From Narcine bancroftii (taxonomy: Eukaryota): a stretch of DNA of 64,000 nucleotides. The stretch spans positions 100,130,001-100,194,000 of the forward strand of contig NC_091471.1 in the NCBI RefSeq assembly GCF_036971445.1, read 5' to 3'. The translations under genes were made by a program, and so were the position numbers. Position 1 is the first letter of the stretch. Every line of letters starts with the position of its first letter. Positions 1 through 52,866 of the stretch are shown in pieces. A model generated the notes under the pieces. It was not told the DNA's origin. It did no database searches and worked only from the letters and a program-made list of their open reading frames with translations.

Positions 1-204
1 GATGCAGACAGAAGACTGAGGGGAACAATAGGCTTTATTGAGCAAGAGACTGCTGGCCCGGGTCCAGGGTCGGAAAATGAGCCGGGAAGGAGAGGGGACT
101 CGACCTCTATGGCCAGGGGTCACATGGGTAGAATCAAGAGAGGAGCTAAGGCAGGGAGACCCCTGGAGAGCAAGCCAGCCAGTGGATACAGCCCTATCAC
201 CGCA
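1..204 (-). mobile_element. Gypsy LTR, cut by window edge, related to the LTR at 13198-13428
   Basis: Colinear similarity, e.g. GAAGACTGAGGGGAAC..TTTATTGAGCAAGAGACTGCTGGCCCGGGTC..TATCACC. Confidence 0.85.
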
Positions 205-8295: not shown

Positions 8296-9369
8296 GAATT
8301 AAATAAATAAAATATTAACTATTCCACTGAAGCACTTAAAAACACATGAGCAAAGAGAAAATTGATCTGCTTTTAATTGTTATGGAATAACCAAACTCAG
8401 AGGAAAACGTTATGAAAATATATCCATGAATGCAGAATTCAATTCGGTCATAATTATACAACCTGTCTGCATCACCTGTCAATGGAAATCTTCCTGGATA
8501 CTATGCCCTTAGTCTTTCCCAATTCAATTTCAATCAGAGCTTTTTGCACACTGATTTAAAGAGTCCTAAACCTAGACTGTCAACAAAATAATTAAAACCT
8601 TCTGTGAGCTGACCAGGACCGTTTTATATTAATATTTTCTCTATTTGTGATTCAAGTTCATCAGTAGTGAGCCATGGACAATCTGCAATGTACAGTATGT
8701 GATTAAGATCTTTAATTTCATAGCATTGTGAATGTTCAGAGCAATTGTTATAATAAGAATTACTTATTCATATCCAAATGGTTTTTTACATAACAGTGCA
8801 ATACTTCCATGGCTGGTATGTTTCTTCCACATTCTATTCTTCAGGAAGCTTTTCTGGATCTGAATGACTTCCCAAAATCTGCATCTCATTTCCATCTATT
8901 GAAAACCAGAGAGGAAGCATTTTTTAAGATAATTGTTAGTGAGTCTTCAGAATAATTGATTATTGTTCATTATATCATAGGATTTTAACGAACTAAAATT
9001 TCAGTCTTTTTTTAAAAATGCATGAATGAATATAGTATGCTTCAAATCACAATGTTTTAAAGGGACTGTTGTTATATAGTCAATATAATGTGAACTATTT
9101 TGTAACTGCATAAGAATACACCCTCCTCCCAGTAGTAACTCTAGTGCACCACTGTGGGGTGCATGTATATGTATAGAGTTTGTGTGAACAGTTTCCTGAG
9201 ATGGTGGAAGACATCAGTAAGTGAAGTATTTTTTGTTATTTGAATCTAAGGTATTTAAGAAGCCTTCCAAGTAACACAGAGACATAACATTATGGCAGTG
9301 GTATAAGAGAACCACTGCCATAATGCAGAGCAGGCGGCTCGGACTCCAGAGCTGTGCTTGGATGTGGCA

Positions 9370-12300
9370 CCATTGAGTCTGTGGCATGGTCGGCAGCCGG
9401 CAAGGCAGTCATGGGGTCTCCGGCCCTTGCTAGGTCTCATATTGGCACAGTGTCCTCGTGACCGACTAGGTACCTCACAAATGCGTACTGGGGGTTGGCA
9501 TATATGAGGTGTACCACTTCAACCAGTGGATCCATCTTATGGCCTCTGACGTGCCTCCAAAGAAGAACCGGCCCTGGGGATATCAGCCAGGGAGTGATGG
9601 AAGAAACATTTGCCGACCTCCTAGGGAAAGCAAAGAGGCATTCATGCAGGGTTGTGTCAGTAGCAGTGCAGAGTAACGACTGGATGGCAAGGAGGGCTTC
9701 AGGCAGAATGACCTGCCAGCGGTACACTGGTAAATGTTTGGACCTAAGGGCCAGAAACACCGCCTTCCAGAAGGTGCCATTCTCCCTTTCCACCTGGCCA
9801 TTACCTCTAGGGTTATAGCTGGTGGTCCTGCTGATGGCTATGCCTCTGGTCAGGAAGTACTGATGCAGCTCCTCACTTATGAACGAGGTGCCTCGGTCAC
9901 TATGAATATAGTCGGCGTACACGAACAAAGTGAAGATCCAGCTCAGGGCCTTGATGACTGTGGCTGAGGTCATATCCGGGCAGAGAATTGCAAAGGAGAA
10001 CCTGGAAAATTCATCCACCACCATCAGGAAGTAGGCGTTCCTATTTGTGGTCAGGAGAGGGCCCTTGAAATCAACACTAAGTCATTCGAAAGGGCGGGTG
10101 GCCTTTTCTGGCAGGTAGAACTGAGGCTTACACTCGGCGCAGATTTGGAAGCATCTGGTTGTGGACCAGACATCCTCGACGGAGTAGGGGAGGTTCCTTG
10201 ACCTGATAAAGTGATAGAAACTCGTGACTCTGGGGTGGCACAGACTGTTGTGCAGGATCTGGAGATGGTCAAGATGCGCTCCAGCGCACGTCCCTCGGGA
10301 TAGGGCATCTGGATTGAGCTTACCCTGTCAATACAATATGTCATAATTGTAGGTGGATAACTCAATCCTCCACCTCAGAATCTTGTCATTTTTGATGTTA
10401 CCCCGTTGTTTGGCACTGAACATGAAGGACACTGTCCTCTGATCAGTCAACAAGGTAAATCTTTTACCAGCTAGATAGTGTTGCCAGTGGCGCACCGCCT
10501 CAACGATCGCTTGCGCCTCCTTCTCGATGGAGGAGAGCCAGAGTTCAGGACTGTGAAGGGTGCAGGAAAAAAAATGCTACCGGCCTGCCTGCCTGGTTTA
10601 ATGTAGCGGCCAGTGCGAAGTTTGGGGCTTCGCTTTCTACCTGGAAGGGAACGGACTCATCCACGGCATGCATCGTGGCCTTAGCGATGTCTCCTCAAAT
10701 CTGATTGAAAGCAGCTTGGGTCCCTGGCGATAGTGGAAAAATGGTTCCCTGAATTAGGGGTAGGACCTGATCGGCGTAGTTGGGCACCAACTGTGCATAG
10801 TATGAGAACAGCCCTAGGCATCTTTTCAGCATTTTCAGGGTGTACTGGACAGTGTCCCAGAAGTGGTCACATGTGGTCAGGGTCGGGAGCAATGACACCA
10901 TGTGCCTCGATGCATCCAAGAAGGGCCAGTGTTGAACACACACTTGTCCTTGTTGTACATCAAGTTAAATAACTTGGCCGTATGCAAGAACTTTGCAAGG
11001 TTTGCATCGTGGCCCTGCTGATTATGGCCACAGATGGAGACATTGTCGAGGTAGTGGAATGTTGCCATCAACCCGTGTTCCTCCACCATCCGGTCCATCA
11101 CTCTCTGGAAGGCAGAAACACTGTTAGTAACACCAAAGGGCACCCTCAAGAAGTGGAAGAGTTTCATGTCAGCTTCGAATCAGGCATAGATTCGATCACT
11201 AGGATGGAGGGGGAGTTAGTGGTGAGCCGACTTGAGGTCAACAGACAAAGAAATCCTGTATTTGGTGACCTTATTGACCAAGTCGGCTAGATGGGGGAGC
11301 AGGTACGCATCCAGCTGGGTGAAGCGGTTGATGGTTTGACTATAGTCAATTACCATCCAGGGCTTGCCCACCCCTCTGTCCATGAGGACCTGTGCTCTCC
11401 AGGGATTGGTGCTCAGGGCTATGATCTCCTCCGCCAGGAGTCGCTGAACCTCAGCCCTGATAAATTGCATATCCTCCGAGCTATAGTGCCGAATTTTGGT
11501 GGCGATGGGTTTGCAATCTGGGGTGAGGTTCACGAACAGCAACAGAGGGGGCACCCTCAAGGTGGTGAGGCCACAGGGTGGTGAGGCCACAGGTTGTAGC
11601 TGGGGACCGAGTGCCAGGCTCACTGGACATCGCTGAGGATTGAGTGCCAATGCCGGTGGACGGTGACGGAGATTGGGAACTGGGGCCACAGGATGGTAAC
11701 GGGGGCCGACTATCCAGTTGGGGATGATCACCCAAATGCTGAGGGCTGTGAATGGTCAATGGTGGTTGGGGGCTTCCAAACGCCATCGTCATGCTCCTAA
11801 ACTGACTCTGAAAGTCAAGGCCTAGGAGGATCGACGCGCAGAGGTAGGGCATGATTAATAACACAAAGTCATTATAACATTAACCCCCCCACCATCAGCG
11901 ATACTACACAATACCCCCAGATACTCATCTGTTGGTCCCTAGCCGCCATTAAAACCATCCTGGTCGTGGGTCAGACCAGGAGTGAGAATCTCTGGATCAC
12001 ATCGGGGTGTACGAAGCTTTCCGTACTGCCGCTATCAAAAAGACAGTTAATTTTATGTTCATTTACCTCAATCTGCATCATTGAGTTTGAGATCGGGTGA
12101 GGACCGGCTTGATTCAGTGTCACTGAAGCGAGGAGTGGCATTCCTTCATCATCGTTGTCGGTGGGGAGGCCTGCCCAAGATGGTGACCTCCATGTTGACC
12201 ATGTAGCATCGGATGAAGAAAAAGTCAGAAGTGGAGTCAAGGCCATCAGAAGTGATGTCACTGGCGCGGTAGGCAGAGGGGCTGAGGTTGGGAGTGGTGG

Positions 12301-13428
12301 CCAGTAATATGGCACTCCCCTCACCGCACATGCGGTCAGCACCGGAAGTTCTTCAGGAACGCACGCTGCATTGCTTGCTGGCTGCGATCGGGACCTGCAG
12401 ACCCTTTGGTAGTGGCCCCTCTTTCCTCAGCCCAAGCACATCGCTCCTTTCGCAGGGCAGAGGCACCTTGTGTGCTTGGCCTGCCCACAGAAGTTGCATC
12501 TCGACGATGCAGTCAGCGTGATTGCAGCCGTGGTCGGGTCGCTGATGCCTGACTCTGAGTCCCAGGCTGATGGCTCTCGTGGTGGAACATACATAGTTGG
12601 CCCACTTCTGCCTACGATAGACACTGCTTGGCGCTGGGCCAAGTCCAGAGTTCTGACCAGTTTGATAGCCTTTTTGAGAGGGAGCGGCCCTTCCTCAAGG
12701 AGTCTTTGCTGGATGTAGTCCGACCTCAAACCCGAAACACAGGCGTCTCTGATCAACTCTTCCAAGCACTGGTTCAGTGATATCATGCCCGGGCCCGTGA
12801 GATCCCCCAAACAGTCTTTTCCCAGTGTGACCAAGGACTGGACGAATTCTTTGGCAGACTCACCAGGCTGCTGTTTCCAGGATGCCAGCAGGTAACGGGA
12901 GTAAACTGAGTTCACCTTTGGTTTATAGAGTGCCCGCAGCTCAGCCATCGCCTCGGTGTAGGTCGCACAACCTAGGATGGTCAAATAGGCCTTCTGGCCA
13001 ACTCATGCTTGAAGCATCTTGAGCTTCTTCTCATCCGAGTCGACCATCTCCGCAGTGACATCGAGGAAATTATTAAAACAGTTCACCCACTGCTCGAAGA
13101 GTACTGATGCACCCAGGACTTGGGGGTCTACTTCCAGCCATTCGGGGCGCTGCAATTTCTCCATAACCAAAGAGTTCAAAAATCAAGCTCAATAAATTGT
13201 TGGACACTATTAGTAGCCCCAATAATGGCGCAGACCGAAGACTGAGGGGAACGATAGGTTTTATTGAGCAAGAGACTGCTGGCCCGGGTCTAGGTTAAGA
13301 AAATGCGCAGGAAGGAGAGGGGACTGACCTTTATGGCCCGGGGTCACATGGAAAGGATTAAGGGAGGATCTAAGGCAGGGAGACACCCGAAGGGCGGGCC
13401 AGCCAGTGAATACAGCCATATCACCACA
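9370..13428 (-). mobile_element. Gypsy LTR retrotransposon (5' LTR, gag, PR, RT, RH, IN; 3' LTR lost)
   Basis: 5' LTR 13198-13428 and gag ATG at 13164. Zinc knuckle CNFCGQAKH, protease LFDSGS, RT YLDNV, integrase VVDEFSRF/HSDRG/GNGQVERENG. Multiple frameshifts. Confidence 0.92.
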
Positions 13429-13781: not shown

Positions 13782-15971
13782 CTTTCTCTTTTCTTTCTTT
13801 GGCTTGGCTTCGCGGATGAAGATTTATAGAGGGGGTAAATGTCCACGTCAGCTGCAGGCTCGATTGTGGCTGACAAGTCCAATGCGGGACAGGCAGACAC
13901 TGTTGCAGCGGTTGCAGGGGAAAATTGGTTGGTTGGGGTTGGGTGTTGGGTTTTTCTTCCTTTGTCTTTTGTCAGTGAGGTGGGCTCTGCGGTCTTCTTC
14001 AAAGGAGGTTGCTGCCCGCCGAACTGTGAGGCGCCAAGATGCATGGTTTGAGGCGATATCAGCCCACTGGCGGTGGTCAATGTGGCAGGCACCAAGAGAT
14101 TTCTTTAGGTAGTCCTTGTACCTCTTCTTTGGTGCACCTCTGTCACGGTGGCCAGTGGAGAGCTCGCCATATAACACGATCTTGGGAAGGCGATGGTCCT
14201 CCATTCTGGAGACGTGACCCACCCAGCGCAGCTGGATCTTCAGCAGCGTGGACTCGATGCTGTCGGCCTCTGCCATCTCGAGTACTTTGATGTTAGGGAT
14301 GAAGGCGCTCCAATGAATGTTGAGGATGAAGCGGAGACAACGCTGGTGGAAGCGTTCTAGGAGCCGTAGGTGATGCCGGTAGAGGACCCATGATTCGGAG
14401 CCGAACAGGAGTGTGGGTATGACAACGGCTCTGTATACGTTTATCTTTGTGAGGTTTTTCAGTTGGTTGTTTTTCCAGACTCTTTTGTGTAGTCTTCCAA
14501 AGGCGCTATTTGCCTTGGCGAGTCTGTTGTCTATCTCGTTGTCGATCCTTGCATCTGATGAAATGGTGCAGTCGAGATAGGTAAACTGGTTGACTGTATT
14601 GAGTTTTGTGTGCCCGATGGAGATGTAGGGGGGCTGGTAGTCATGGTGGGGAGCTGGCTGATGGAGGGCCTCAGTTTTCTTCAGGCTGACTTCCAGGCCA
14701 AACATTTTGGCAGTTTGCGCAAATCAGGACGTCAAGCGCTGAAGAGCTGGCTCTGAATGGGCAACTAAAGCGGCATCGTCTGCAAAGAGTAGTTCACGGA
14801 CAAGTTGCTCTTGTGTCTTGGTGTGAGCTTGCAGGCGTCTCAGATTGAAGAGACTGCCATCTGTGCGGTACCGGATGTAAACAGCGTCTTCATTGTTGAG
14901 GTCTTTCATGGCTTGGTTCGGCATCATGTTGAAGAAGATTGAAAAGTGGGTTGGTGCGAGAACACAGCCTTGCTTCACGCCATTGTTAATGGAGAAGGGT
15001 TCAGAGAGCTCATTGCTGTATCTGACCCGACCTTGTTGGTTTTCGTGCAGTTGGATAACCATGTTGAGGAACTTTGGGGGGCATCCGATGCGCTCTAGTA
15101 TTTGCCAAAGCCCTTTCCTGCTCACAGTGTCGAAGGCTTTGGTGAGGTCAACAAAGGAGATGTAAAGTCCTTTGTTTTGTTCTCTGCACTTTTCTTGGAG
15201 CTGTCTGAGGGCAAAGACCATGTCAGTAGTTCCTCTGTTTGCGTGAAAGCCGCACTGTGATTCTGGGAGAATATTCTCGGCGACACTAGGTATTATTCTA
15301 TTTAGGAGAATCCTAGCAAAGAAGCGAGCTGCCCACCAGGCTCACCTTACAAAGCCGTCCTGTCCAGACAAGAAACAAGCCTTCCGTCGTGCATGCAGCC
15401 ATCTTCAGCGCAAACTCCGGGAGATCCAAAATGAGTGGTGGACTAGCCTCGCCAAGCAAACCCAGCTCAGCGCGGACATTGGCGACTTCAGGGGTTTCTA
15501 CGAGGCTCTAAAGGCTGTGTTCGGCCCCTTACCCCAAGTCCAAAGCCCGCAGCGCAGCTCAGACGGCAAAGTCCTCCTCAGCGACAAGATCTCTATCCTC
15601 AACCGATGGTCAGAACACTTCCAATCTCTTTTCAGTGCCAACCGCTCAGTCCAAGATTCCGCCCTGCTCCTGCTCCCTCAACAGCCCCTAAGGCTAGAGC
15701 TGGATGAGGTCCTCACCCGGGAAGAGACATATAAGGCAATTGAACAACTGAAAAGTGGCAAAGCAGCAGGTATGGATGGAATCCCCCAAGAGGTCTGGAA
15801 GGCTGGCGGCAAAACTCTGCATGTCAAACTGCATGAGTTTTTCAAGCTTTGTTGGAACCAAGGAAAACTGCCTCAGGACCTTTGTGATGCCATCATCATC
15901 ACCCTGTACAAAAACAAAGGCGAGAAATCAGACTGCTCAAACTACAGGAGAATCACGCTGCTCTCCATTGC
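13782..15971 (-). mobile_element. RTE-clade LINE, 5'-truncated with inverted 5' segment
   Basis: RT on - strand at 13848-15322 (FVDLTKAFD, GVKQGCVLAP, LFADD) with an (AAGA)n-type tail. Upstream ORF segment on + strand at ~15320-15971. TSD AGAGACTGATT at 13771-13781 and 15972-15982. Confidence 0.93.
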
Positions 15972-18900
15972 AGAGACTGATTAAACTGTTGATAACTTCC
16001 TCATTAGACTAAAAATTGTTGCTGCAATATGCAGATTTAAGGATATAGAAGAAAGATGAATTGATCAACATGTTAAAGAGTGTCTATCCTCTTGAAGGAT
16101 AGCTTGAAGCTGGCTGAGGCTATAGACACAGCTAGAGTCTTTGAAGCCACGAGGTCACAAATGCAATCCCTATCTCTGCAGACCTACCACAGCAAAGGGA
16201 AGGAAGGGTTGATGCAATAAAGAACACAATCAGATAAGTTCAAACCCCTAGGTCCTGCAGGACGTGTGGCAGACAACACCCTTTTGATGACCAAATCAAA
16301 TGCCCCACATATGGTTCTGAATGTAGAGCCTGTGGTAAAGCAAACCTCTGGGGGAAGATGTGCAGGTCTGCTATGAAGAAAACAGTAATACCAGTGAAGA
16401 AAAAAGACAAGAAGAAGATCCACCACATTAAAGGAAACAACAGTGAAGACTCCGACAGCCAGATACTGGACATGGAATCCATACACCTTCACAAGATGTC
16501 GGGTGAGATGAAAGAAGGAAGCGAGTTACACACAAAGATCCAAATATAGAGAACAATCCAGAACAAGCCTACAATATTTAACCTAAAGGTGAAGTTGGAT
16601 TCTGGATCACAAAGCAATGTCCTTTCACTCAGAGAACATAATAAAAGGGTATCCAAAAGACAGTGCATTGGAAACAGCAAATGTCACATTAATGACCTAT
16701 GGTGGACCCATGATCAAGCAGCTAGGGAGAGCTAAGATCAATGGCTGCCATAAGGGAAAGGACATCCTCTGTACGTTCTATGTGGTAGGTGCAGACAAAC
16801 CAGCAATTCTAGGTCTGGATAGCTGCCAGGAGTTGCATTTGATCTCTGTCAATTATGAGATCCAGATGGAGAAGATATCCAAAAGCATCAACAGACACAC
16901 ACAAAAAAAAAGAAGAAATGATTTCCACAGAAGTACCTGCCAGGCCATGTCACACAGTGGGAGCAAACTCGTTCACCGAGAATCAAGTGGTATTTAATAG
17001 TAGCCTGTTACTATTCTTAGTTTCCATTCTTCAAAAGGGTGAAAGACCTGAGAGCCACTATCACCTCAGAAATGAGAGCGCTCTTTGCTGAACAAGGAAT
17101 ACTGAACAAGTAATATGTGACAATGGAACACAGTTCAAATCACAAGAATTCAGAAAGCTGGCTGCAGAGTATGGGTTTGTTATCACTACATCATCCCCAT
17201 AGGTCATGGGTTCATTGAAAGACAAGTGCAAACTGTGAAATGCATGCTAATTAAGTGTTGCAGAACAAAAGACCCATATCTTGCTCTTCTATCATTACGA
17301 GCAACACCTTTAAGGGCTGACATGAAGTACCTAGCAGAACTTCTAAATGGCAGGAGATAAAAAAAAACAACTCTGCCAAGCAAAATACACTCTCCAGAAG
17401 ACCAGAAGGAAACCAGAAGAAAACTGGCTGACATGCAAGAAGAAGGACGCCAGCATTATAACAAACATGCAGAAACATTGGCAGGACTCTTCAGAGGGCA
17501 GCATATGCATATTTAAGAGCTGATGTTGAAAACATGGACCCCAGCAAAGGTCATTGGATAAGTCGAGACACCAAGATCAATCATTGTTGAACCAGACTCT
17601 GGAAATCAGTTGAGGATGAACAGAATTCACATCCAGCCTACACATGATGTGTTGAAGTAGAAAGCTTTAATACCAGCAAAGCCTGCAACACCAATATCAA
17701 GTGAGGTATCAAGTGAAGAGACCACAACCACTAATAATGAAACATCAACACAGCAGTTGTCAGCTGAAGCTCAACAAGCTACATCACCTACACATGTACC
17801 AGCAACACAGAGCCCAAAGGTTGCAGCCAAATCCACAAGATGGTGAAGGAACATACTGCTGCCAGTGTGATATCGATAAGGACTATTTAAAAATAGTTGT
17901 GTAAATAAACTAGTGTAAAAGTTCATTTACTTAATTTGCACTGGAAAGAAAGTGATTAAAAAAAACTATTTTTTTCTTTATCTTGAGAAGGAGGGATGTT
18001 ATATAATCAGGATAATGTGAACTATTTTGTAACCACATAAGAATACACCCTTCTCACTGTAGTGCACCACTGTGGGGTGCATGTATATGTATAGAGTGTG
18101 TGTGAACAGTTTCCTGAGATGGTGGAAAACATCAGTAAGTAGACTCTCTTTTGTTATTTGAATCTTGGATTTAAGAAGTTGCCCACGGTAACAAAGACAT
18201 AACAACCATTATTTAGGTTATTTTACTAAAAACAGCTCAAAAATTGTGCTCCACTATATGACAACCAACTTTGGCACAATATTTGATAATTTCCTGAATA
18301 CTCTTAATTCATTGTACCAAATTGCAGTGGGAGGAAATGGTCAGAATTATTCTTCACATCATATTTCTCTTATTATAAAGACAAAAATTAACATCCTTAC
18401 CATCTGATCATCTTTTGGATAATTTGATGCCCTTCACTCATACAGAAATACTATACAGTGTTATTAATAAATTAAATTCATCTTTGTGCAACAAATACAC
18501 TAATTTGTATTATTTTTTTATGACAGACATTAAATCATTTAGAATGTGTTCAACAATAGTAATGGAAAATACACAAAATGATATATTCTGAAAGATAAAA
18601 AATAAGAAAACCTGAGAACATGACAGTAAAATTATCAATACACAATGTTTCTAAATCTTTATCAGAAATTTAAACAAAAACAGAATTGGCTGGAAATACT
18701 CAACAGGTGAGGTCGAATCTATGGAAAGAGAAATAGATTTAATATTTCGGAACAAAGACACTTTGTCAGTACAACCTTCAGTTTTTGGTTTAAATTTCGA
18801 GCATCTGCAATTTTGCTTGCCAATGAATTATTTTTTTGGAACACCATAATGCTGAAAACAAAAAAAAAGTGAGCACATCTGGTCATCAATTTTTTTTTTT

Positions 18901-20434: not shown

Positions 20435-20672
20435 TGTGATAGTACAGATCTATCACCAATGTATATAGTGTATATAGTTACAGTATCTAGACTGTGCTTA
20501 CAGCGATTGGCTGAGAGCTTAGCCACGCCTACTGTCTGGGCCTTAAAGGGTTGTGTCCCTAGCCAGGTCCGATCATTCCGGACTGGTCGGCCACCTGTGA
20601 AGAGCTCCTGTCTTTTGCTAATAAAGGCCTTGGTTTGGATCAACAAGTCTGGTTCTTTCGACGAGCTCTACA
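20435..20672 (+). mobile_element. Solo LTR related to the LTRs at 48087 and 52635
   Basis: TGTGATAGTACAGAT..CTACA with shared ATTGGCTGAGAGC.TAGCCACGCCTACTG and CCTTGGTTTGGATCAACAAGTCT; flanks GAACG/GTACG. Confidence 0.9.
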
Positions 20673-23931: not shown

Positions 23932-26900
23932 ATGTTTTTCAAGATGGCGTCAGAGAGAAAATAGGTAATGAGCAGAGCTCATCAGAAGAAAGAAGGAAAA
24001 AGAGAGAAAAAAGAACTCCTTGAAAAAACATAAAGAAAACATTGAAGAAATAATTTTTTAAAAACCAAGAGAGAATGGGAAGAAAGAATAAAGCAAAGAA
24101 TCAAGCTAGAGGAGAAAATTGGAACAGATCACCTCGTGTTGGAAGGGAAAAGGAGTTCGACCTCTGGCCCACGCAGACATTGGCAGCAACAGTGGTGGGA
24201 ATGGAGGCTTTGACCATCCTGCAGGTCAAAAACTAACCAGGTAGGTTGAATGAGGTCAGCATGACAGAAACAGGAGTACAAGGGGGTCTGGAGAAGAACT
24301 CGAGTGTGGAGGAAGGAACACCATCGGGAACATCGTCGAGTGACCACAGAGTGGTGAGGGCCATGAGAGAGGAGGTGGGAGTGCTAACAGGTGACCACAA
24401 AGTATGGAAGGCTGCAACCGAGGAGACAGGAGCTCCATCGGACGACCACAGAGGGTGGAGGGTTGTGAGCGAGGAGGTGGGAGCACTGTCGGGTAATCAC
24501 AGATGTAGGAGGGCCACGAGCGAGGAGGTGGGAGCATTGTTGGGTGACCATGGAGTGTGGAGGGCTGCGACCGAGGAGGTGGAAATGCTGATGGGTGACC
24601 ACGAAGATGTGGCAGAGGCCAGTGGGCATCTCAACTGACTTGGGCCCGGAGGGGCAGTGAAGGTGGCAAGAACAACAAGGAAGAGGAATAAAAGGCACTC
24701 ACCTGGTAGGGCAAATCCATGCAGGGGCCAGGAGGTGGAGGTGGTGATGGGCACGCGAGGCATCAGGGATGACAGACTGCAGGACCAGGGAGGAGTTGGG
24801 ATGCCAAGGACAGCAGGGAAGGCAAGGGCAACATTAGTCCAAAGACTTCGGAGGAAAGAAGAGGAACAAAAGATAAAGGCAGGGAGGAAGAAAGTCAAAG
24901 GAAAAGGGAGGAAGAGGGCTCAGCGGCCTCTGCCAGAGACATTATGGATGAACGTTGGTTTTAAAAGACTGGTGGCAAGCCAGAATGCCATCAAAGAGAA
25001 ACTAGATAATCTAACCAACAGGGTGGAAGTAACAGAAGAAAGAAAAGAAAGAATAGAAGAAAGTCTGGAAAAAAGGGAAGGAGAGATGGACATATGGGAG
25101 AATGAAAAAGAAAGAATATGGGAGAAAATTTCAACAGGAGAAATAATATTAAAATCGTGGGGGTGAAGGAGGGCACGGAGGAAAGAGACCTGGTGGGGTT
25201 CTTCAAAACGTGGATTCCTGAGGTGTTGGGCAGGGATAAAATTGGAAATGATCTGGAGATAGCGTGGGCCCATCAGTCTTTTGCCCCCCCAAATAGATTC
25301 AAATCAGCGACCCCAATCTGTCCTGGTTAGGTTCCTTTGCTACCAGGACAAAGAGAGTTTAAAGGGCTGTGGCAAGGGAAGCAAAGGAGAGAGGGGCTCT
25401 GGTGGAATATGGAGGAGTGAGAGCCTCTTTTACCTGGATGTAAGTGCAGCACTTGTAAGGTGCAGGAGGGAATTCAACCAGGTGAAAAAATATCTTAGGA
25501 TAAAATAGGACTGAGTTTATCCTCCTTCACCTTGCAACACTGAAAATATTTTGGGCAGGAAGGTAGAAAAAGTTTTTTTACAGGCCCTCAGAAGACATTG
25601 CTTTATGTGGAAAACCTATTGCCCTTCCAGGGGTAAATTTAAATAAGGGGAACAGGAAAAGGGGGAATTGGGGGAAATATTGATTGTATATATTGTAAAT
25701 GGTATGATTATGATGGGTATATTTCATTATGGTCAACTGTGTTATTGCCTAAAGGAGAATAGCTAAGTTAAAAGAAGAATTATTATGGGGAGCTCAAAGG
25801 GGAGAGACTAGGGTAAGTGTGAGATGCATGCATTGGGCATGCCCCAAAATGGCAGGGGAGTTGGCACCAATATTTCGGGCATTGGCGCCAAGAAAGGTAG
25901 GGGTTGATTGGGGGGAGAAGGGCAAGGGAAAGGATTAGTTGGGGTACTTTTTGTATTACTTTGAATTGTTTGTTCCAGTCTTTTTAGATCATTTAGGTTT
26001 TGTTTGGAGCAACATTGTCACGCCATAACTTTGGTGGGCAGTCAACTGCGTTAAAATGAAGGTGATGCCAAGGCTACAATATCTATTTCAGTTGTTACCC
26101 ATTCCATTGCCCCAGGGTTTAAGAGGCTCAGTGGGTGTGTCAGAAAGTTCCTGTGGAATGGTAAAGTGGGCAGAATCTCCACAGAAACATTGACAGGATT
26201 ACAAATTGGGGGGGGGGGGGGGGGCGGTTTAGAATTGTTAGATTTCAAAAAAAATTATTGGGCGGCCCAGGTGAGATTTATTGCCTCACTCTTTGAGGAA
26301 GGGGACCCTCCTTCCAGGGCACAAATTGGACTGCATGCAATAGGTGAAAAGATAACAGGACAGTTTATATATAAATTGGACACTAAATTAATTTCAAAGC
26401 TTGTACTTCTGACATGGCAAAGAATAAATCAATATATTGGATTGAAGATAGGGATATCTCTCAAAATGCCCTTGACCCAGAACAACCTAATACCCATGAC
26501 TGTGGAAGATAAGATCCTGGACACCTGGTACCAGAAAGGGGTCAGGTGTATCGAGATTGTTGCAAGTGAGGGGCAGCTCATGTCATTTAAACAATTAAGG
26601 AATAAATATGATTTGTCTAATAGAACATTCTTCTGCTATCTGTAACTAAGATCTTCTTTGAGGGACAAATTGGGACCATCCATGACTCTGCTTATGTGCA
26701 GTGACATGGAAATTCTAATTCGAAGGGGGAATGTGAGTAAATTTATAACCATTTTATATTCCAAAGTGAGAGCCTGAAGCTGGGTTTTACAAAGGTTGAG
26801 GGAGAGGAGCTTGGGCACAAAATCCACGAGCGGTGCTGGTCAGATCTGTGTCTGGACAGTATGGCTGCTGTTATTTATGGCAGGTACAGGTTGGTGCAAT

Positions 26901-41394: not shown

Positions 41395-44020
41395 TGTGGT
41401 GGTGTGGTGTAATCAATGACCATTCCCAGACATGAAGCAGGTAGTCAAAGGCTTTATTGATCAGAAGATCCAGACATGCCTCTACATGCTGCTGGCTCAC
41501 GTCCAAGGCAGGTATGAGGGAGGAGATTAGAGATCTCGGCCTTTATTAGGAGATCTTATCTTTGGCTTGGCTTCGCGGACGAAGATTTATGGAGGGGGTA
41601 AAAGTCCACGTCAGCTGCAGGCTCGTTTGTGGCTGACAAGTCCGATGCGGGACAGGCAGACACGGTTGCAGCGGTTGCAGGGGAAAATTGGTTGGTTGGG
41701 GTTGGGTGTTGGGTTTTTCCTCCTTTGCCTTTTGTCAGTGAGGTGGGCTCTGCGGTCTTCTTCAAAGGAGGTTGCTGCCCGCCAAACTGTGAGGCGCCAA
41801 GATGCACGGTTTGAGGTGATATCAGACCACTGGCGGTGGTCAATGTGGCAGGCACCAAGAGATTTCTTTAGGCAGTCCTTGTACCTTTTCTTTGGTGCAC
41901 CTCTGTCACGGTGGCCAGTGGAGAGCTCGCCATATAACACGATCTTGGGAAGGCGATGGTCCTCCATTCTGGAGACATGACCCACCCAGCGCAGCTGGAT
42001 CTTCAGCAGCGTGGACTCGATGCTGTCGACCTCTGCCATCTCGAGTACTTCGACGTTAGGGATGAAAGCGCTCCAATGGATGTTGAGGATGGAGCGGAGA
42101 CAACGCTGGTGGAAGCGTTCTAGGAGCCGTAGGTGATGCCGGTAGAGGACCCATGATTCGGAGCCGAACAGGAGTGTGGGTATGACAATGGCTCTGTATA
42201 CGCTTATCTTTGTGAGGTTTTTCAGTTGGTTGTTTTTCTAGACTCTTTTGTGTAGTCTTCCAAAGGCGCTATTTGCCTTGGTGAGTCTGTTGTCTATCTC
42301 ATTGTCGATCCTTGCATCTGATGAAATTGTGCAGCCGAGATAGGTAAACTGGTTGACTGTTTTGAGTTTTGTGTGCCCGATGGAGATGTGGGGGGGCTGG
42401 TAGTCCCCTTATGGGGAAGGGCTAATGGTACAGGTCAGGCTAGCCTGCCGAGCCCAGTGAGGACATGCCCAGACATGCCCGCAGTATCGTGTTCCACCAC
42501 ATTCACTCCTCCTTTTTTTGAATGAAGCCTGGCAGGGTGATGCAGTGCAATGTCCATCGGCACAGTTCTTGTAGTCCATACAGTTCAAAAGGTACAGCCA
42601 CTCCAGCCATTTTATTCAGCGCTGAGATCTCTGATGTACTGCTGGCTGTATCGTTGGTTCCAGCAGAATGGTGGCTTGTTTGACCGGTTGGGTGTTGAAA
42701 GGCTGAACAGTATCTATGTGTACTGGGTCAGTAGGGAGTGGGGAAATTTTTTGTAACAGTGTGGGGGGGGGGGGTGGGGGGAGAAGGAAACACTCCAGTT
42801 GGAAGGGGAAAACACTCGGGGGACTGTGTCGGAAGTGGGATCACTACTTAATTGGTCAGGGTGATTCCTGTGGCCAAATCGTCACTGCCTGGGGGTATCA
42901 GGTGCACCTCCTATGCCGGGCCCCCCACTTGCACCTGGTCCCAGATACTGGGGATTCGTCTGCAGGAGGAGCACTTCCTCAACCAGTGGGTCTGCCTTAT
43001 GCATTCTCTTCCGGAGAAGCACTGGCCCTGGGGTCGTCAGGTAGACTGGCAGCGTGGTTCTCGAAGCCGACGTCCAAGGGAAGGAGAACAATTTTTTATG
43101 GGATGTTCCATTAGTTGGTGTGCAAAGTAGGGACCTGGTGGCATGCAGTGCTTCTGGAAGGATCTCTTGCCACTGGAATACGGGCATTCCTTTCAACTTG
43201 AGGGCCAAAAGGACTGCCTTCCAGATTGTACCATTCTCCCTCTCCACCTGCTTGTTCCCGTGAGAGTTGTACCTGGTGGTTCTGCTTGTAACTATGCCCC
43301 TGGAAATTAAGTATTGCCGCAACTCCTCACTCATGAAGGTGGATCCCTGATTGCGATGAACATAACTGGGGTATCCGAACAGAATGAATACTGTGCTGAG
43401 TACGTTAATGACCGTGGATGTGGTCATGTCAGGGCAGATGATGGCAAATGGGAAACGTGAGTACTCATCCATGATGCTCAGGAAGTAGATGTTCCAATTC
43501 GTGGACGGGAGCGCCCCCTTGAAGTGCATGCTGAGACGTTCGAAGGGGTGAGTGGCCTTGATGAGTTAGGCTCTCTCTGGTCTGTAAAATTGCGGCTCGC
43601 ATTCCACACAGAATGGGCAATTGCGAGTGAGCTCCCTGACTTCCTCCACTGAGTAGGGGAGGTTACAGGCTCTCACAAAATGGTAGAGCCTTGTGAATCC
43701 AGATGGTGGATGCTATCAAGGAGGGCATGGAGGTGTTCAACTTGCATCCTGGCGCAGGTTCCCCTGGACAGGGCATCGGGTGGCTCATTGAGCTTGCCCG
43801 GCTGATACAAGATCTCATAATTATAGGTAGACAGCTCAAATCTCCACCTCATTATCTTGTAATTTTTGATTTTACTCTGCTGTTTATTGTTAAACATAAA
43901 AGCAACGGTACTCTGGACAATCAGCAGGGTGAATGGTCTGCGGCCAATGGCGCAAGTCCTCCACTATAGCTTGTGCCTTTTTCTCAATGGTGGAGTGACT
44001 GCATTTGGGGCCTTGGAGGG
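41395..44020 (-). mobile_element. Gypsy 3' portion A (RNase H end, integrase, PPT, 3' LTR split by RTE)
   Basis: LTR 41395-42501 with TGTGGTGG..CCACCACA termini; PPT AAAAAGGAGGAGTGAA; integrase IMDEYSRF..QVERENG. Confidence 0.85.
41560..42405 (-). mobile_element. RTE LINE 3' fragment, same family as 13782-15971
   Basis: Near-identical to 13795-14642; short flanking repeat CTTAT. Confidence 0.93.
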
Positions 44021-45210
44021 TGTAATGTGACAGAGAGCACTCAAGACCAGAGAGAGTACAACACACTTTTATTCAATAAGAATGGCACACATGGTCTGTG
44101 GACTGAACTGGGGTTTTGGTGGGGATCCACAATTTACGTCGAGATATGCAGAAGGCAGAGTCAGGAGCCAGTCCTTAGAGCATTGCTCCAGTCGTGAGTT
44201 CCCAGTTCACTACATTCACCCCTTCATTTTGAATGAAGCCTGCGGGTGAAAACAGAGAACATTGGATAGTCAAATTTTTTTTTACAATATTTACAAGTTC
44301 AACCTGTGAGGAGGTCTGGAAATGTGGGCAGAGCGCCGCAGTGTCAGATGGCCTTGGACTTCCTGACCCTCCTGTGGTTCCAGGACCTTGGGGTGTGGGT
44401 GATCTGGCTCTGATTGAGGGGGTGGCTGGAGCCACTTCCTGCGACAGCTCATCTGAGCCCCTTGGCTTTTCTCCGGAAACCATGCCTAGGTCAGAATCCT
44501 GGCCCCCTTGAGATGATGAACTCTCAGTTCTGGCAGGTTCCAGGTCCCTGATCGAGACAGTGTCCTCCCTTCAATCTGGATATGCCACGTAGGCATAAGT
44601 GGGGTTGGCATGGAGTAGGTGCACCTTCTCAACCAGGAGATCGGATTTGTTCCTCATCACATGCTTTCAGAGCAGCACTGGACCTGGTGCTGTAAGCCAT
44701 GCAGGGAGGGTTGTCCCTGACATTGACTTTCTTTCGAAAGAAAACGTTAGCACGTGAGGAGTCACATTGCTCGCAGTGCCAAGTAGTGAACTAATGGAGT
44801 GGAGCGCCAAGGGTAGGACTTCCTGTCAGCATGGGTCTGGAAGTCCTTTGGACCAGAGGACAAATTTTATGGCCTTCCAAGCTGTAGTGTTCTCTTTCTC
44901 AACCTGTCCATTCCCCCGGGGGTTGTAACTAATCATCCTGCTGGATACAATGCCTTTCAACAGCAGAAACTGTTGTAGCTCTTCGTTCATAAATGATGAG
45001 CCCCAGTTGCTATGGATATAGCCAGGATATCCGAACAGGGCAAAAATAGGGTCTAGGGCCTTAGTGACGGACGGCACGGATTTGTCTGGGCAGGGAATAG
45101 CGAACAGGAAATGAGAGTACATGTCAATGACAGTGAGAAAGTACACATTCCCATTCGAGGAGGGGAGGGGTCTCTTGAAATTAATACTGAGACATTCAAA
45201 GGGCCTGGAT
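44021..45210 (-). mobile_element. Gypsy 3' portion B (integrase, PPT, 3' LTR)
   Basis: LTR 44021-44214 (TGTA..TACA); PPT GAAGGGGTGAA; integrase VIDMYSHF..GNGQVEKEN. Confidence 0.85.
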
Positions 45211-45254
45211 AGACAGCAAATGGCAACAGAATTTTAACACCTTTCATTCTGAAC

Positions 45255-46370
45255 TGTAATATGTGGAAGAGGATCAGAATACTCTAGGGTCACTTTTTAA
45301 AGTGACACAAGAAGTCAAAACCCAGCAAAACTGGAGCACATAAATTCTTAAGTACATTGTAGTGCAAATATAAGCTCTCATCACTGGAAGGAGAACAAAC
45401 GCTTTTATTAGCTTATAATTATGGGTAGGGTTTCACAGTAGTCTTTGGAAGGGTTCTGGGTTTAGGCAGGAAACCAGAGTTATATGTGAGCAGATGGTAG
45501 TGGAGCCAGCCACCAGCACAGCACACTACCAGTTCACTGCATTCACCCTTTCCTGCAGAATTTAGGGTCTGTGAATGATGACTGAGAATGTGGGTTCAGA
45601 AAAAGGAAGTTGAAAAATTTACAGTTATTTACAAATTTACAGATTTAAGCGGTCTGGGGGTCTGGAGATCCTGGTGGAACGCCTTAGCACTGGAGGGCCT
45701 TGGACTGCTTGGGTCTCCTGGTCCCCTCGTGAGGGAGGAGAGGCAGGCTGGGTCTCTGGGTTATCAGTGGAGGAGGATGCACTTTCCTCCTGAACCGAAT
45801 CCCCTGAGGCCCTGACTGGGGGTGGCGAGAATGAGCTCCGTGGCTCGCAGGGCAACATGAGGCAATGGTTCCCTCTGTTCCAGTGGGTGCCAGGTCCCTG
45901 ATGGAGACAGTGTCCTCTCTGCCATATGGGTACTCCACATATATGTATGTGGGATTGGCATGGAGCAGTTTCGTCCTTTCCACCAGGGGGTCGGTCTTGC
46001 TTCTCCTCACGTGCTTTCTGAGGACTGGGCTAGGAGTGGTGTGCCAGTTTGGGAGTGTAGTTCCAGAAGCCAACCTTCTTTTAAAATTCAATAAGACCTC
46101 GTGAGGAGTAGCATTGGCCATGGTACATAGTAACGACCAGATGGAATGGAACACCGTAGGGAGAACTTCTGGCCAGTGTGAGCCTGGAGGGCCTTTTGAC
46201 TTCAGGGCCAGTTTTACAGCCTTCCAGACCATGGTGTTCGCCTTTACAACCTGCCCATTCCCCCAGGGGTTGTAGCTAGTAGTCCTGCTGGATGCGATGC
46301 CCCTCGGCAGTAGGTACTGACGTAGCTCGTCACTCATAAAGGTTGAGCCCTGGTGACTACCAAGGATTAA
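45255..46370 (-). mobile_element. Gypsy 3' portion C (integrase C-half, PPT, 3' LTR)
   Basis: LTR ~45255-45541; PPT GGAAAGGGTGAA; integrase GNGQV..REDTVSIRDLAP; ends LRRSTRISRPPDRLNL. Confidence 0.82.
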
Positions 46371-48086: not shown

Positions 48087-51000
48087 TGAGATAGTACGGA
48101 TTCTATCACCGATGTATATATTGTACTATAGGATGGCTGTGATTGGCTGAGAGCGTAGCCACGCCTACTGGCAGGTCTTAAAGGGTTGCTCCTAGCCAGA
48201 CCCAGATTATTCTGGACTAGTCAACCTACATGTGATATGCTCCAATCTTTTAGTTAATAAAAGCCTTGGTTTGGATCAATAAGTCTTTGATTCTTTTGAC
48301 GTGCACTACAATTTTATTAACCAAAACGTTTTCTAGGGATGGAGCGTATGCTATGACCGGAATGCCTCAACATTGACCCGCAGTCAGCTACTGCCCCAAA
48401 TTACTTCAAGCACTGGGTGAGGTGTTTCAAAGCTTACCGTGGAGGAAGACGGCCATCGACTGCTAGTATTGATGTCTATGGTGTCCCCGAGGGTCTATGA
48501 GAACATCCAGGACGCAGCCACCTACACAGTAGCCATGAAGGTGCTGAAAGGACTCTACGAGCGACCTGTGAACAGGGTTTATGCCTGGTACAAGCAGGTG
48601 ACCAGGAGGCAACTGTCCGGTGAGTCCTGTAGAGCTTACCTCCAAGCACTAAGGGTACTGGGCAGAGCCTGTGCCTGCACAGACAGAACTGCTGCTGAGA
48701 TCACTGACGATCTCATTCAGGATGCTTATGTGGCCGGGGTCCGATCGAATGAGGTGAAGCAGTGCCTGCTAGAGCAAGGGGGACAAAACCTAGAGGACGC
48801 AACCCGGATCGCAGAGACGATGGAGGCTGCAGTCTTAAGTATGGATGCTAACTCTCAAGTCTGGACCCCACGCTATGAAGTGAGTAGGATGCCTCTCCTT
48901 AACTCTACTAACCCACAGCCCACTGATGGCCTGTCTGCCACCGCTACCCTGCCTGATTCGACCTGAAGTGCTACTTCTGTGGGAGGGATAAGCACAGCAG
49001 GATCCAGTGTCCTGTAAGGAAAGCCAGGTGCCAGAAGTGCCTTAAAAATGCCACTTTGCTGTAGTCTGTGGCTCCAAAATGGCCACCATCAAACATAGTT
49101 CCTCGTGTGAGGCCCAACCACCATCCCCTCATTCAAACCTCTCTTCATCAGAGCTCTCGTCCAATGAGAGCGAGGGCTCGATCGCGCGGCAGCACCTGAA
49201 GTCATGGGCAGGCACTGAGCGCAGAAGGGACACTCCACCCTCACCGCGATGACGTTGGCCTGCTTGGACCACCAACAAAGAGCAACGGCTGCCCAGGCCC
49301 CGGCCTCGACTCAAGTGACCTCAGTGACGGTCGCCTCAGCCATGATTCTGGCCCAGACTTCAGCGACCACTGCCGCTGACCTGGTAACTGCTGCCAGCGC
49401 CACAGACCAGGTAACCGCCATGGCTACCACTGCTGCCACTGATGCTGCTGACCAGGTACCCGCCGCCGCTACTGCTGATGACTGGCCGACCGACCTTCCC
49501 ACCGCTGACTGCAAGCAGCGACCCCCAGCACTTACCGTTGGCAGCCCAATGGCCCCAGCCGGCTGCAAACAGCAGCCCAAGCCACTCGCCACCAACAGCC
49601 CCAGCCCGACTGCTCCAGTGACGTCACCACGCACACATAGTGCACTTCAGGCCCAATGCTGAGTGATGTCATCACGCAAGACTCCACTATCCCCAGCACA
49701 GGTCGCTGCATCAGTGACCCTGGACCAAGACTGCCCCATCCCCTCACAAAAGCGGTGGAACAGATTAAAGTGCACGGACACCATACTAACTGCTTATTTG
49801 ACTCGGGGTCAACTGAGAGTTTTATCCATCCAGACCTAGCCAACTGTTGTGGACTGGTCATTCTCCCCACTGACCAAAAGACTTCATTGGTGACTAGATC
49901 ACACTTGACTGGAGTAAAGGGGTATTGCGTGGTGACCCTAAAGTCCAGAGCATCACATTTATCGATTTTAAAATGTTGGTCCTCCCTCAACTGTGCCACC
50001 CATATTGCTGGGACTGGATTTTCAGTGCCAGTTCCGAACTGTTTCCCTGCTGGGGAAACTGGGGCCCCACGCACCACTCTCTGTCTGTAACCACACCACC
50101 CCGGAGGCTTCCTGCCAGCGACAGCCTACACCACCCGCCCCCATGCCCCACATGTAGCCTCTCCACTCTCCGGGTTACTCCTCCAGTACTCTTCGCAAAC
50201 CTCACCTGTGGCTGGAAACCAGTGGACACCAAAACCCAGCAGTATAGTTACGAGGACAGGAAATTTATCACAAGCGAGGTGCACAGACTGCTGGACAAGG
50301 GCATTATCGAACCTAGCTCAAGTCCCTGGAGGCCCCAGGTGGTGGCTGTTAAAAATGGGGAGAAGCTGCAGATGGTGGTTGACTACAGCCAGACAATCAA
50401 TCGCTTTTCGCTTCTGGATGAGTACCCCCTCCCACGGATCATGGATGTGGTGAATCAGATTGCCCAATACCGTATGTTCTCCACCATTGACCACCATTCG
50501 GCCTATCACCAGCTCCCGATCCGCCAAGAAGACCAGCCTTTCATGGCCTTCTAAGCAAATTCCTCAGGGTACACTTTGGGGTCATGAATGGCTTCGCGGT
50601 TTTCCAGCGGGAAATGGACCAAATGGTCGAAGAGAACGGGTCAACAGCTACTTCCCATATCTGGACAACGTCACCATCTTTGGCCATGACACGGAGGATC
50701 ATGATGACAACCTTGAGAAATATTTTCCAGACTGTGATTCGGCTGAACTTAACCTACAATTTCGACAAATGCGTCTTCTGGACCACTCGGCTAGTGTGGT
50801 GGAGAACAGGGTGGTAATGCCAGACCCTGACCGCATGTGTCCCCTCATGGACCTGCCACACCCCGCCCCCCACACCCAAATGGCACTCAGCTGCTGCCTG
50901 GGCTTCTTTTCGTACTACGGCCAATGGGTTCCACACTACGCCGACAAGGCACAACCACTTATCAAGACCAGCTCCTTCCCGCTGTCAACCAAAGCCAGAG

Positions 51001-52866
51001 CTGCCTTTGATTGCATCAAATCAGACATCATCGCTGCAACGCTGCATGCCATCGACGAGTCCATTCTGTTCCAAGTAGAGAGCAATGCATCTGATTTTGC
51101 ATTGGCGGCCCCTTTGAACCAGGCCGGCTGGCTGGTAGCCTTCTTCTCCAGGACCCTCCAGGGCCCTGAGAGCCAACACTCTTCTGTCGAGAAGGAGGCC
51201 CAGGCCATAGTTGAAGCAGTACGTCATTGGAGGCACTACCTCACTGACAGGCGCTTTACACACCTGACCGACCAACGTGCAAACTCCTTCATGTTTAGCA
51301 ATACCCAGCGAGGTACGATCAAGAATTACAAGATCTCTAGGTGGAAAAATCAAACTCTCCACCTTCAATTATGACATACTGGTAAGCTCAACGACCCGCC
51401 AGATGCACTCTCCAGGGGGATGCACCAACATACAACTGGACAGGTTTCAGAGACTCCACGAGGAGCTCTGTCATCTGGGGGTCACTAGGTTTGTGCACTT
51501 TGTTAAGGCCCTCAACAGTTGAGGAGATTCGCTCCATGACCCGAGCCTGCCCGGTGTGCACTGAGTGCAAGCCCCACTTCTTCCACCTGGAGAACACCCA
51601 CGTCATCAAAGCCACCCAGCCATTTGAATATCTAAGTGTGGACTTCAAGGGGCCCCTACTGACGACCAACCATAACACCTACATTCTTACAGTGATCGCC
51701 GAGTACTCTAGCTTCCCATTTGCTCTGCCCTGCTCAGACATGACTGCCTCCTCAGTCATAGAGGACTTGCATAGCATCTTTGCCATCTTTGGGTACCCCA
51801 GTTACATCCACAGTGACCGGGGATCCTAGTTTATGAGTGCAGAGCTACGGCAGTACCCCCTGGAGCACGGTATTGCTTCGAGCAGGACCACCAGCTATAA
51901 CCCACATGGTAATGGGCAGGTCGAAAGAGAGAATACCTCCGTCTGGAAAGCGGTCACGTTTGCCCTCCAGTCTAAAGGCCTCCCCACCACTCTCTGGCAG
52001 GACGTACTCACTAGTGCCCTACACTCCATCTATTCCCTCTTATCCACTGTGACACATGACTCTTTCATGAGGAAATATGAATTGGGAACAACCAACACCA
52101 GTGTGGCTCACTGTTCCCGGACCTGTCCTCCTGCGACACCATGTCCGCTACACAAAGAACGACCCTTTGGTTGACCGAGTGACGCTGCTCCATGCGAACC
52201 CGCATTACACATACATTGAGTACCCGGATGGGAGGGAGGACACGGTTTTGGTAAGAGACCTAGCCCAAGCCGGATGGGACCCGGCATTGCTCCCAACCCA
52301 ACCTCCTCCAAATCCTTCTCCCCAGGTCACGTGCTTGAACAGAGGGATCAGCACCACCCCACCAGTGGCAGTGGCAACAACTCAGGCCAGCCTGTCGACA
52401 ATCCCATTGGGGAATTCAGCGAGACAGGGCACGCACCCAAGGAGCCCACCAGCGACACGACTCCAGCGGCCCCAATCCCAGCACCACAGCGGTCACGCCG
52501 GGGTCACGCCGGACAATCAGGCCCCCCAACCTTTACAGCTCCTAACCTCCCACCAGTCTCTCTCTCTGCTCCCCCTTTTTTTATTTTTACAGCCCGCCAT
52601 TCACCCCGGGGTCAGTTCTCAAAGAAGGGGTGAATGTGATAGTACAGATTCTATCACCGATGTATATATGTGTATATTGAAGTATAGGATGGCTGTAATT
52701 GGCTGAGAGCATAGCCACGCCTACTGGCAGGTCTTAAAGGGTTGCTCCTAGCCAGACCCAGATCATTCTGGACTGGTCGACCTACATGTGATACGCTCCA
52801 GTGTTTTGGTTAATAAAAGCCTTGGTTTGGATCAACAAGTCTTTGATTCTTTCAGTGTGCACTACT
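48087..52866 (+). mobile_element. Full-length decayed Gypsy LTR retrotransposon
   Basis: LTRs 48087-48310 and 52635-52866, roughly 90% identical by eye. Gag ATG at 48339, CYFC..H..C knuckle, LFDSGS protease, YLDNV RT, RNase H (EKEAQAIVEAV), integrase HSDRG, PPT AAAGAAGGGG. Flanks GTCAC/GTCCC interrupt a LINE motif (NNIAL | KTKELIADFR). Confidence 0.95.

Follow-up and report, generated by a model that had tools for sequence, protein, structure and literature searches.

The window analysed here, a 64-kb stretch of the Narcine bancroftii genome (contig NC_091471.1, positions 100,130,001-100,194,000), carries a decayed Ty3/gypsy element on its minus strand and raises the question of how such an element begins reverse transcription. 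Self-priming is the simplest reading, because the site where a tRNA should bind matches a segment of the element's own long terminal repeat (LTR).

Leader-LTR complementarity in the window

On the minus strand, the 5' LTR of this element (family 1; Table 1) ends in ...CCAACA at 13198 and is followed by A at 13197 and then by TTTATTGAGC (13196-13187), the exact reverse complement of GCTCAATAAA (13269-13260) within the same LTR. The loop of this duplex measures 63 nt, the gag ATG lies at 13164, and 12 of 14 positions shared by the LTR segment (the arm) and its complement (the site) are paired in the window copy, with two mismatches at positions 11-12. A preliminary description had proposed this pairing and LTR end, and its coordinates proved correct on re-reading the sequence; it had also called the LTR dissimilar to the one starting at 48087 (family 2), and self-BLAST of the window shows no similarity between the two. 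No 3' LTR of the family 1 element was found within the 64-kb window. Sister copy L023 keeps both LTRs. Its 3' LTR, bordered by a 5-bp target duplication, runs to ...CCCAACA; because it ends at the same CA, next to the duplication, the family 1 LTR end is settled without using the pairing. A second family 1 LTR straddles the window start (L261), and its leader pairs at 14/14 positions before a short gag start.

Table 1 Features of the family 1 and family 2 elements and related LTRs in the window
Feature	Position	Strand	Remarks
Family 1 5' LTR of decayed Ty3/gypsy element	13198..13428	-	231 bp, TGT...ACA; start common to copies; end from 3' LTR and 5-bp duplication of sister L023
Family 1 LTR arm, predicted self-primer	13260..13273	-	Includes AATAAA; 13260-13269 perfectly paired in window copy
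Family 1 single-A spacer after terminal CA of LTR	13197..13197	-	Identical in 24/24 anchored families
Family 1 primer-binding-site position	13183..13196	-	Complement of arm, no TGG; 13187-13196 perfect
Family 1 broken gag-pol	9425..13164	-	Order gag, protease, RT, RNase H, integrase
Second family 1 5' LTR at window start (L261)	1..204	-	Arm 34-47; LTR end, leader and gag start just beyond window
Family 2 5' LTR	48087..48310	+	Same lineage, LTR sequence unrelated to family 1
Family 2 LTR arm	48248..48262	+	15 nt
Family 2 primer-binding-site position	48312..48326	+	14/15 pairs in window copy
Family 2 3' LTR	52635..52865	+	No complementary leader behind
Solo LTR related to family 2	20435..20672	+	Host sequence next, no complementary leader

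Taken alone, a single 10-bp duplex is unremarkable. Matches of 10 bp occur about once per 10 kb in the window, and two of its eight perfect inverted repeats of at least 10 nt with 18-110 nt loops are the family 1 and family 2 leaders. Whole-leader folding z-scores were not significant relative to shuffles (-0.47 for family 1 and -1.04 for family 2 at 48087), and the duplex of the 48087 leader was found in the centroid and was absent from the minimum-free-energy structure. The match frequency and z-scores are compatible with chance pairing of AT-rich sequence; it is the fixed position of the duplex, together with the family data below, that makes it non-random.

Matched variation within families

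First-look candidates in the source genome numbered at least 2,430 for family 1 and at least 4,189 for family 2, and 30 loci of each were fetched. Of the family 1 loci, 28 were used, L007 and L030 being left out because of deletions; each of positions 1-14 forms a Watson-Crick pair in 24-28 of these copies, and position 15 does so in 0/28. Two positions have changed on both sides, in 4 and 6 of the 28 copies, with one-sided changes there in 1 and 3. Family 2 was represented by 24 copies and by 6 others that carry a deletion; among the 24, pairing holds at positions 1-15 in 19-24 and at position 16 in 1/24, two positions show both-sided changes (8 and 10 of 24 copies), and the six remaining copies lack one base in arm and site alike, that is, a matched 1-nt deletion. 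The matched variants of families 1 and 2 mostly track subfamilies and therefore represent few independent events. In a third family of the source genome, 16-18 nt are paired and the best-kept copies have AGTAAA facing TTTACT, many other copies being decayed.

A young family (L201-L240) has intact ORFs of about 1,400-1,480 aa, whose length follows a tandem Ala-rich repeat that separates Gag from protease, and identical LTR pairs; 39 of 40 fetched copies were parsed as full elements, 36 of the 39 with identical 5-bp duplications. The bases just beyond the pairing edge are unusually variable in this family (4 states, 5 tree steps): among 4,492 windows, 24 reach 5 steps and 3 reach 4 states. Copies L233 and L137 carry an arm change in both LTRs and an unaltered site, and L131 carries an arm change in both LTRs plus the matching site change. 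Comparing 5' with 3' LTRs defined the LTR ends of family 1, of the young family (39/40 copies) and of five metagenome families, and in each the complement begins one A later. In L023, L024 and L202-L240, in both families, the polypurine tract (PPT) is followed by AA before the TGT of the 3' LTR, and the gap between 5' LTR and site is one A; the cDNA ends may thus be asymmetric. We note that L167 carries, at 94-270, two tandem copies of LTR end plus site in its leader (CACAA-TTTAACCAACTT).

Conservation of the arrangement across families

A scan of marine metagenomes yielded 118 relatives, of which 80 were kept; 69 of these included the start of gag together with upstream DNA, the other 11 being left out. 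These 69 and four source-genome loci formed 37 clusters at 85% gag identity, each represented by its first-listed member. In an unguided search, the best duplex lay directly after the CA+A of the LTR in 28/37 clusters, compared with a background of 3.3%, and duplex scores of at least 10 were reached in 30/37 clusters versus 101/1,480 shuffles. By eye, four of the eight unanchored clusters show the arrangement with mismatches, one is without the arm in its 5' LTR and three are without an LTR end. The 28 anchored clusters and one that fits after a one-base shift, minus five close sisters, gave 24 non-redundant families; because these were picked for having the anchor, 28/37 is the unbiased figure.

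Across positions 1-12 of the 24 families, 276 of 288 cells (96%) are Watson-Crick, with 1 G-U and 11 mismatches; 67 of the Watson-Crick cells depart from the commonest pair through changes on both sides, and slid controls pair at 22-35%. The family's own LTR is strictly the best partner of the site in 21/24 families. Complementarity continues past the poly(A) hexamer, positions 7-13 averaging 6.5/7 Watson-Crick with the own LTR versus 3.8/7 with the LTRs of other families, and a canonical TGG follows the LTR in none of the 24. The single-A spacer, already described as kept in the two window families, recurs in every anchored family. With the duplex fixed in position, pairing far above slid controls and changes on both sides, chance AT-rich matching is refuted by the cross-family data, and we give it practically no credence. 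The pairing of leader and LTR is real and lineage-wide, and it is probably functional.

Arms are about 11-18 nt long and loops 24-73 nt. The last base of the arm is A in 24/24 families, followed by GCC or ACC in 18, and position 10 is G in 21/24. AGT, which we take to resemble the initiator consensus, stands 11 nt from the arm end in 11/24 families. Arm hexamers are AATAAA (8 families), ATTAAA (4, plus 1 straddling the arm end), AGTAAA (2) or none (9). The preliminary description had named two findings that would refute it, related families without complementarity past AATAAA or with canonical TGG sites, and neither was encountered in the 24 families. The poly(A) hexamer itself does not stay constant, nine or ten of the 24 arms having no standard one. 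A stem starting directly after the arm (RCC...GGY) is present in 23/24 families, with a mean of 4.1 bp versus 3.7 bp in controls; barely above control, it is only a hint of conserved structure. In 6/24 families, sequence downstream of the site offers a partner of at least 4 bp like that in the Tf1 pretzel.

Predicted self-priming and competing readings

We consider it likely that this chromodomain-less Ty3/gypsy lineage with a Mag-like Gag primes itself as Tf1 does, the RNA start, cut and priming step being inferred from the DNA. In this scheme the transcript would start at the 5' end of the arm or a few bases before it; the arm would fold onto the site over the 24-73 nt loop; the RNA would be cut at the 3' end of the arm, presumably by the element's RNase H, to leave a 3'-OH; and the RT would extend this end through the spacer A and U5. 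The arm copy in the 3' LTR would supply the poly(A) signal in the many families with AATAAA or a variant. Less certainly, plus-strand synthesis may copy the primer back into the site, such that arm and site would evolve together.

The sharp stop of pairing in families 1 and 2 (after positions 14 and 15, respectively) fits a primer with a fixed 5' end. These two families have no initiator at the pairing edge, and TATA-like and initiator-like words lie 35-50 nt upstream, so their arm may not be the transcript 5' end. Because position 1 never varies, the primer end could be one base off. Contigs of four presumed-RNA runs contained no clear poly(A) junction, contigs being unable to show RNA ends and arm depth being confounded by sister subfamilies; because young intact copies exist, RNA ends are directly mappable.

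Pairing could also involve the other end of the RNA, with the arm copy of the 3' LTR pairing with the site. Both LTRs contain the arm, which invariably closes with an A-rich run, and sequence alone cannot tell which of its copies pairs. RNA normally ends 10-30 nt past a poly(A) hexamer, however, so where the arm is that hexamer the RNA should extend further on, and a 5' start agrees with the abrupt distal limit of pairing and with the AGT at position 11. We know of no precedent for such 3'-end pairing in Ty3/gypsy elements and regard it as unlikely.

Alternatively, the duplex might serve only to hide the poly(A) signal of the 5' LTR against premature termination, with something else doing the priming. 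AATAAA, ATTAAA or AGTAAA is found in 15/24 arms, and the complement lies only behind the 5' LTR; yet the 9/24 arms without such a hexamer, some of them from decayed copies, still pair, and the complement sits exactly at the primer-site position, where no tRNA site is found. Since nine or ten arms lack a standard poly(A) hexamer, masking AATAAA is not all that the duplex does. We consider concealment as its only function quite improbable; it may be an additional one.

The primer could instead come from the host, as a piece of tRNA or another small RNA, in which case the duplex would serve packaging or dimerization. Some copia lineages are known to be primed by half-tRNAs in the absence of TGG (PMC6317226), and some arm letters are fixed, G at position 10 among them. 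However, the site varies between families (26 distinct 10-mers in 29) and tracks the family's own LTR down to the matched deletion, which leaves a host primer very unlikely.

Under self-priming, several features suggest that the primer is copied back into the site: the near absence of G-U pairs, the matched deletion, the sharp distal edge and the variability of the bases beyond that edge. L233 and L137, changed in the arm only, and L131, changed in arm and site, would represent two stages that copying predicts. Weighing against re-copying, a review describes the site of Ty3 and Ty1 as inherited, with no copying of the primer (PMC7472051). If the arm is the primer and the site is rewritten from it each cycle, matched changes may arise automatically. 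The covariation between the two window families had been read as evidence for a selected RNA structure; changes on both sides now extend across 24 families, but covariation need not mean compensatory selection on the helix and may come partly from copying of the primer into the site.

Lineage affiliation and hosts

The elements have Ty3/gypsy features (TG...CA LTRs, target duplication, PPT and the order protease-RT-RNase H-integrase), and their best solved-structure match is Ty3 RT. Relatives form at least 1,268 protein clusters, mostly single ORFs near 1,200 aa, with named matches in rays, a shark, a sea anemone, whipworms and a prawn. Viral contigs yielded no relatives, and a protein search for longer proteins with the broken window gag gave no match. 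No chromodomain was found at the integrase C-terminus in the L220 ORF, in 120 listed homologues (precomputed domains) or in 20 scanned full-length relatives. Twin CCHC knuckles, a Mag-type feature, are present in the Gag of 99/120 listed homologues, and the RT motif reads Y.DN in most of the 120 (mostly YLDN). In an RT-RNase H tree, 44 rows of the lineage form a group apart from 42 other Gypsy rows (SH-aLRT 100), the comparison set containing no named Tf1, sushi, Mag, SURL or Cigr-1 references; a PF24626 search of the source genome for sushi-like reference RTs gave broken pieces only, which were left out.

The single ORF of about 1,200 aa, elements of about 4.1 kb and Mag-type Gag resemble Cigr-1. 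Cigr-1 of the Mag lineage is a tentative lead for the clade name. The marine-animal host range reported in PMC6238403 for the Mag lineage and Cigr-1 clade is also similar, and the literature searched held no statement on Cigr-1 priming. The Saci2 clade was rejected, as it has 4-bp target duplications (PMC12471100) versus 5 bp in 36/39 young-family copies.

Comparison with known self-priming systems

Self-priming is established for Tf1 of Schizosaccharomyces pombe and has been proposed for Tf1/sushi chromoviruses, Tj1, Tcn1 and TAR copia; among Ty3/gypsy elements, the literature consulted ties it to the Tf1/sushi chromoviruses (PMC4600332, PMC6317226, bioRxiv 2022.12.06.519325). In Tf1, the site is paired with the first 11 bases, and RNase H cleaves the RNA between bases 11 and 12 (PMC7175516). 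Like Tf1/Tf2 and the Tf1/sushi chromoviruses (also Tj1, Tosmo and Tcn1), the present lineage has the Ty3/gypsy domain order and no tRNA site, and its primer-site position is complementary to a segment of its own 5' LTR (11 nt in Tf1, about 11-18 nt here). Unlike them, it has no chromodomain, a Gag with twin CCHC knuckles and an RT with mostly YLDN; its arm often overlaps the poly(A) signal; and the three-duplex pretzel, in which both flanking duplexes use site-adjacent sequence (bioRxiv 2022.12.06.519325), is not conserved. Priming and cut have been shown in Tf1, whereas here both are predicted from sequence. The lineage likely works like Tf1 while departing from Tf1/sushi membership in two features, the chromodomain and the pretzel.

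Outside the chromoviruses, LTR-to-primer-site complementarity is also described for the Ty1/copia elements TAR, Houba and Osr-1, for which self-priming is predicted by the criterion that applies here (at least 10 bp, starting 0-5 bp after the LTR; PMC6317226); unlike the present elements, these belong to the copia superfamily in plants and have integrase before RT. No report of self-priming in the present lineage was found in the literature searched, with subscription papers, GyDB and Repbase notes lying outside that search and possibly holding one. This appears to be a known mechanism in an apparently unreported lineage and architecture.

If the reading is correct, a second widespread lineage (at least 1,268 protein clusters and thousands of candidate copies in the source genome) would self-prime, and tRNA-free priming would be older or would have arisen more than once, which bears on the proposal, made in PMC3601003, that hairpin priming preceded tRNA priming. 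Such elements would also escape tRNA-fragment silencing, and annotation tools requiring a tRNA site would miss or mislabel them. More tentatively, and with some doubt, we suggest that a large animal Ty3/gypsy lineage spanning cnidarians, nematodes, crustaceans and cartilaginous fish evolved self-priming independently of Tf1/sushi, that one LTR segment of 11-18 nt combines the functions of transcript start, poly(A) signal and primer, and that the primer site is rewritten from this segment each cycle.

Other repeats in the window

On the minus strand, 42945-46358 holds three further pieces of the lineage described above, from integrase or RNase H, two of them about 1,350 bp apart. The plus-strand solo LTR at 20435-20672 is close to the young family, and its flanks (GAACG/GTACG) differ by one mismatch. 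Two 96% identical copies of a LINE 3' end look-alike, which we take to be perhaps RTE-like, occupy 13792-14642 and 41554-42405, one about 360 bp upstream of the family 1 LTR. A 220-bp repeated element is present at 9056-9289 and 17983-18204, with one copy where the family 1 element breaks off, and at 24326-24629 some five or six diverged 51-bp units are repeated in tandem.
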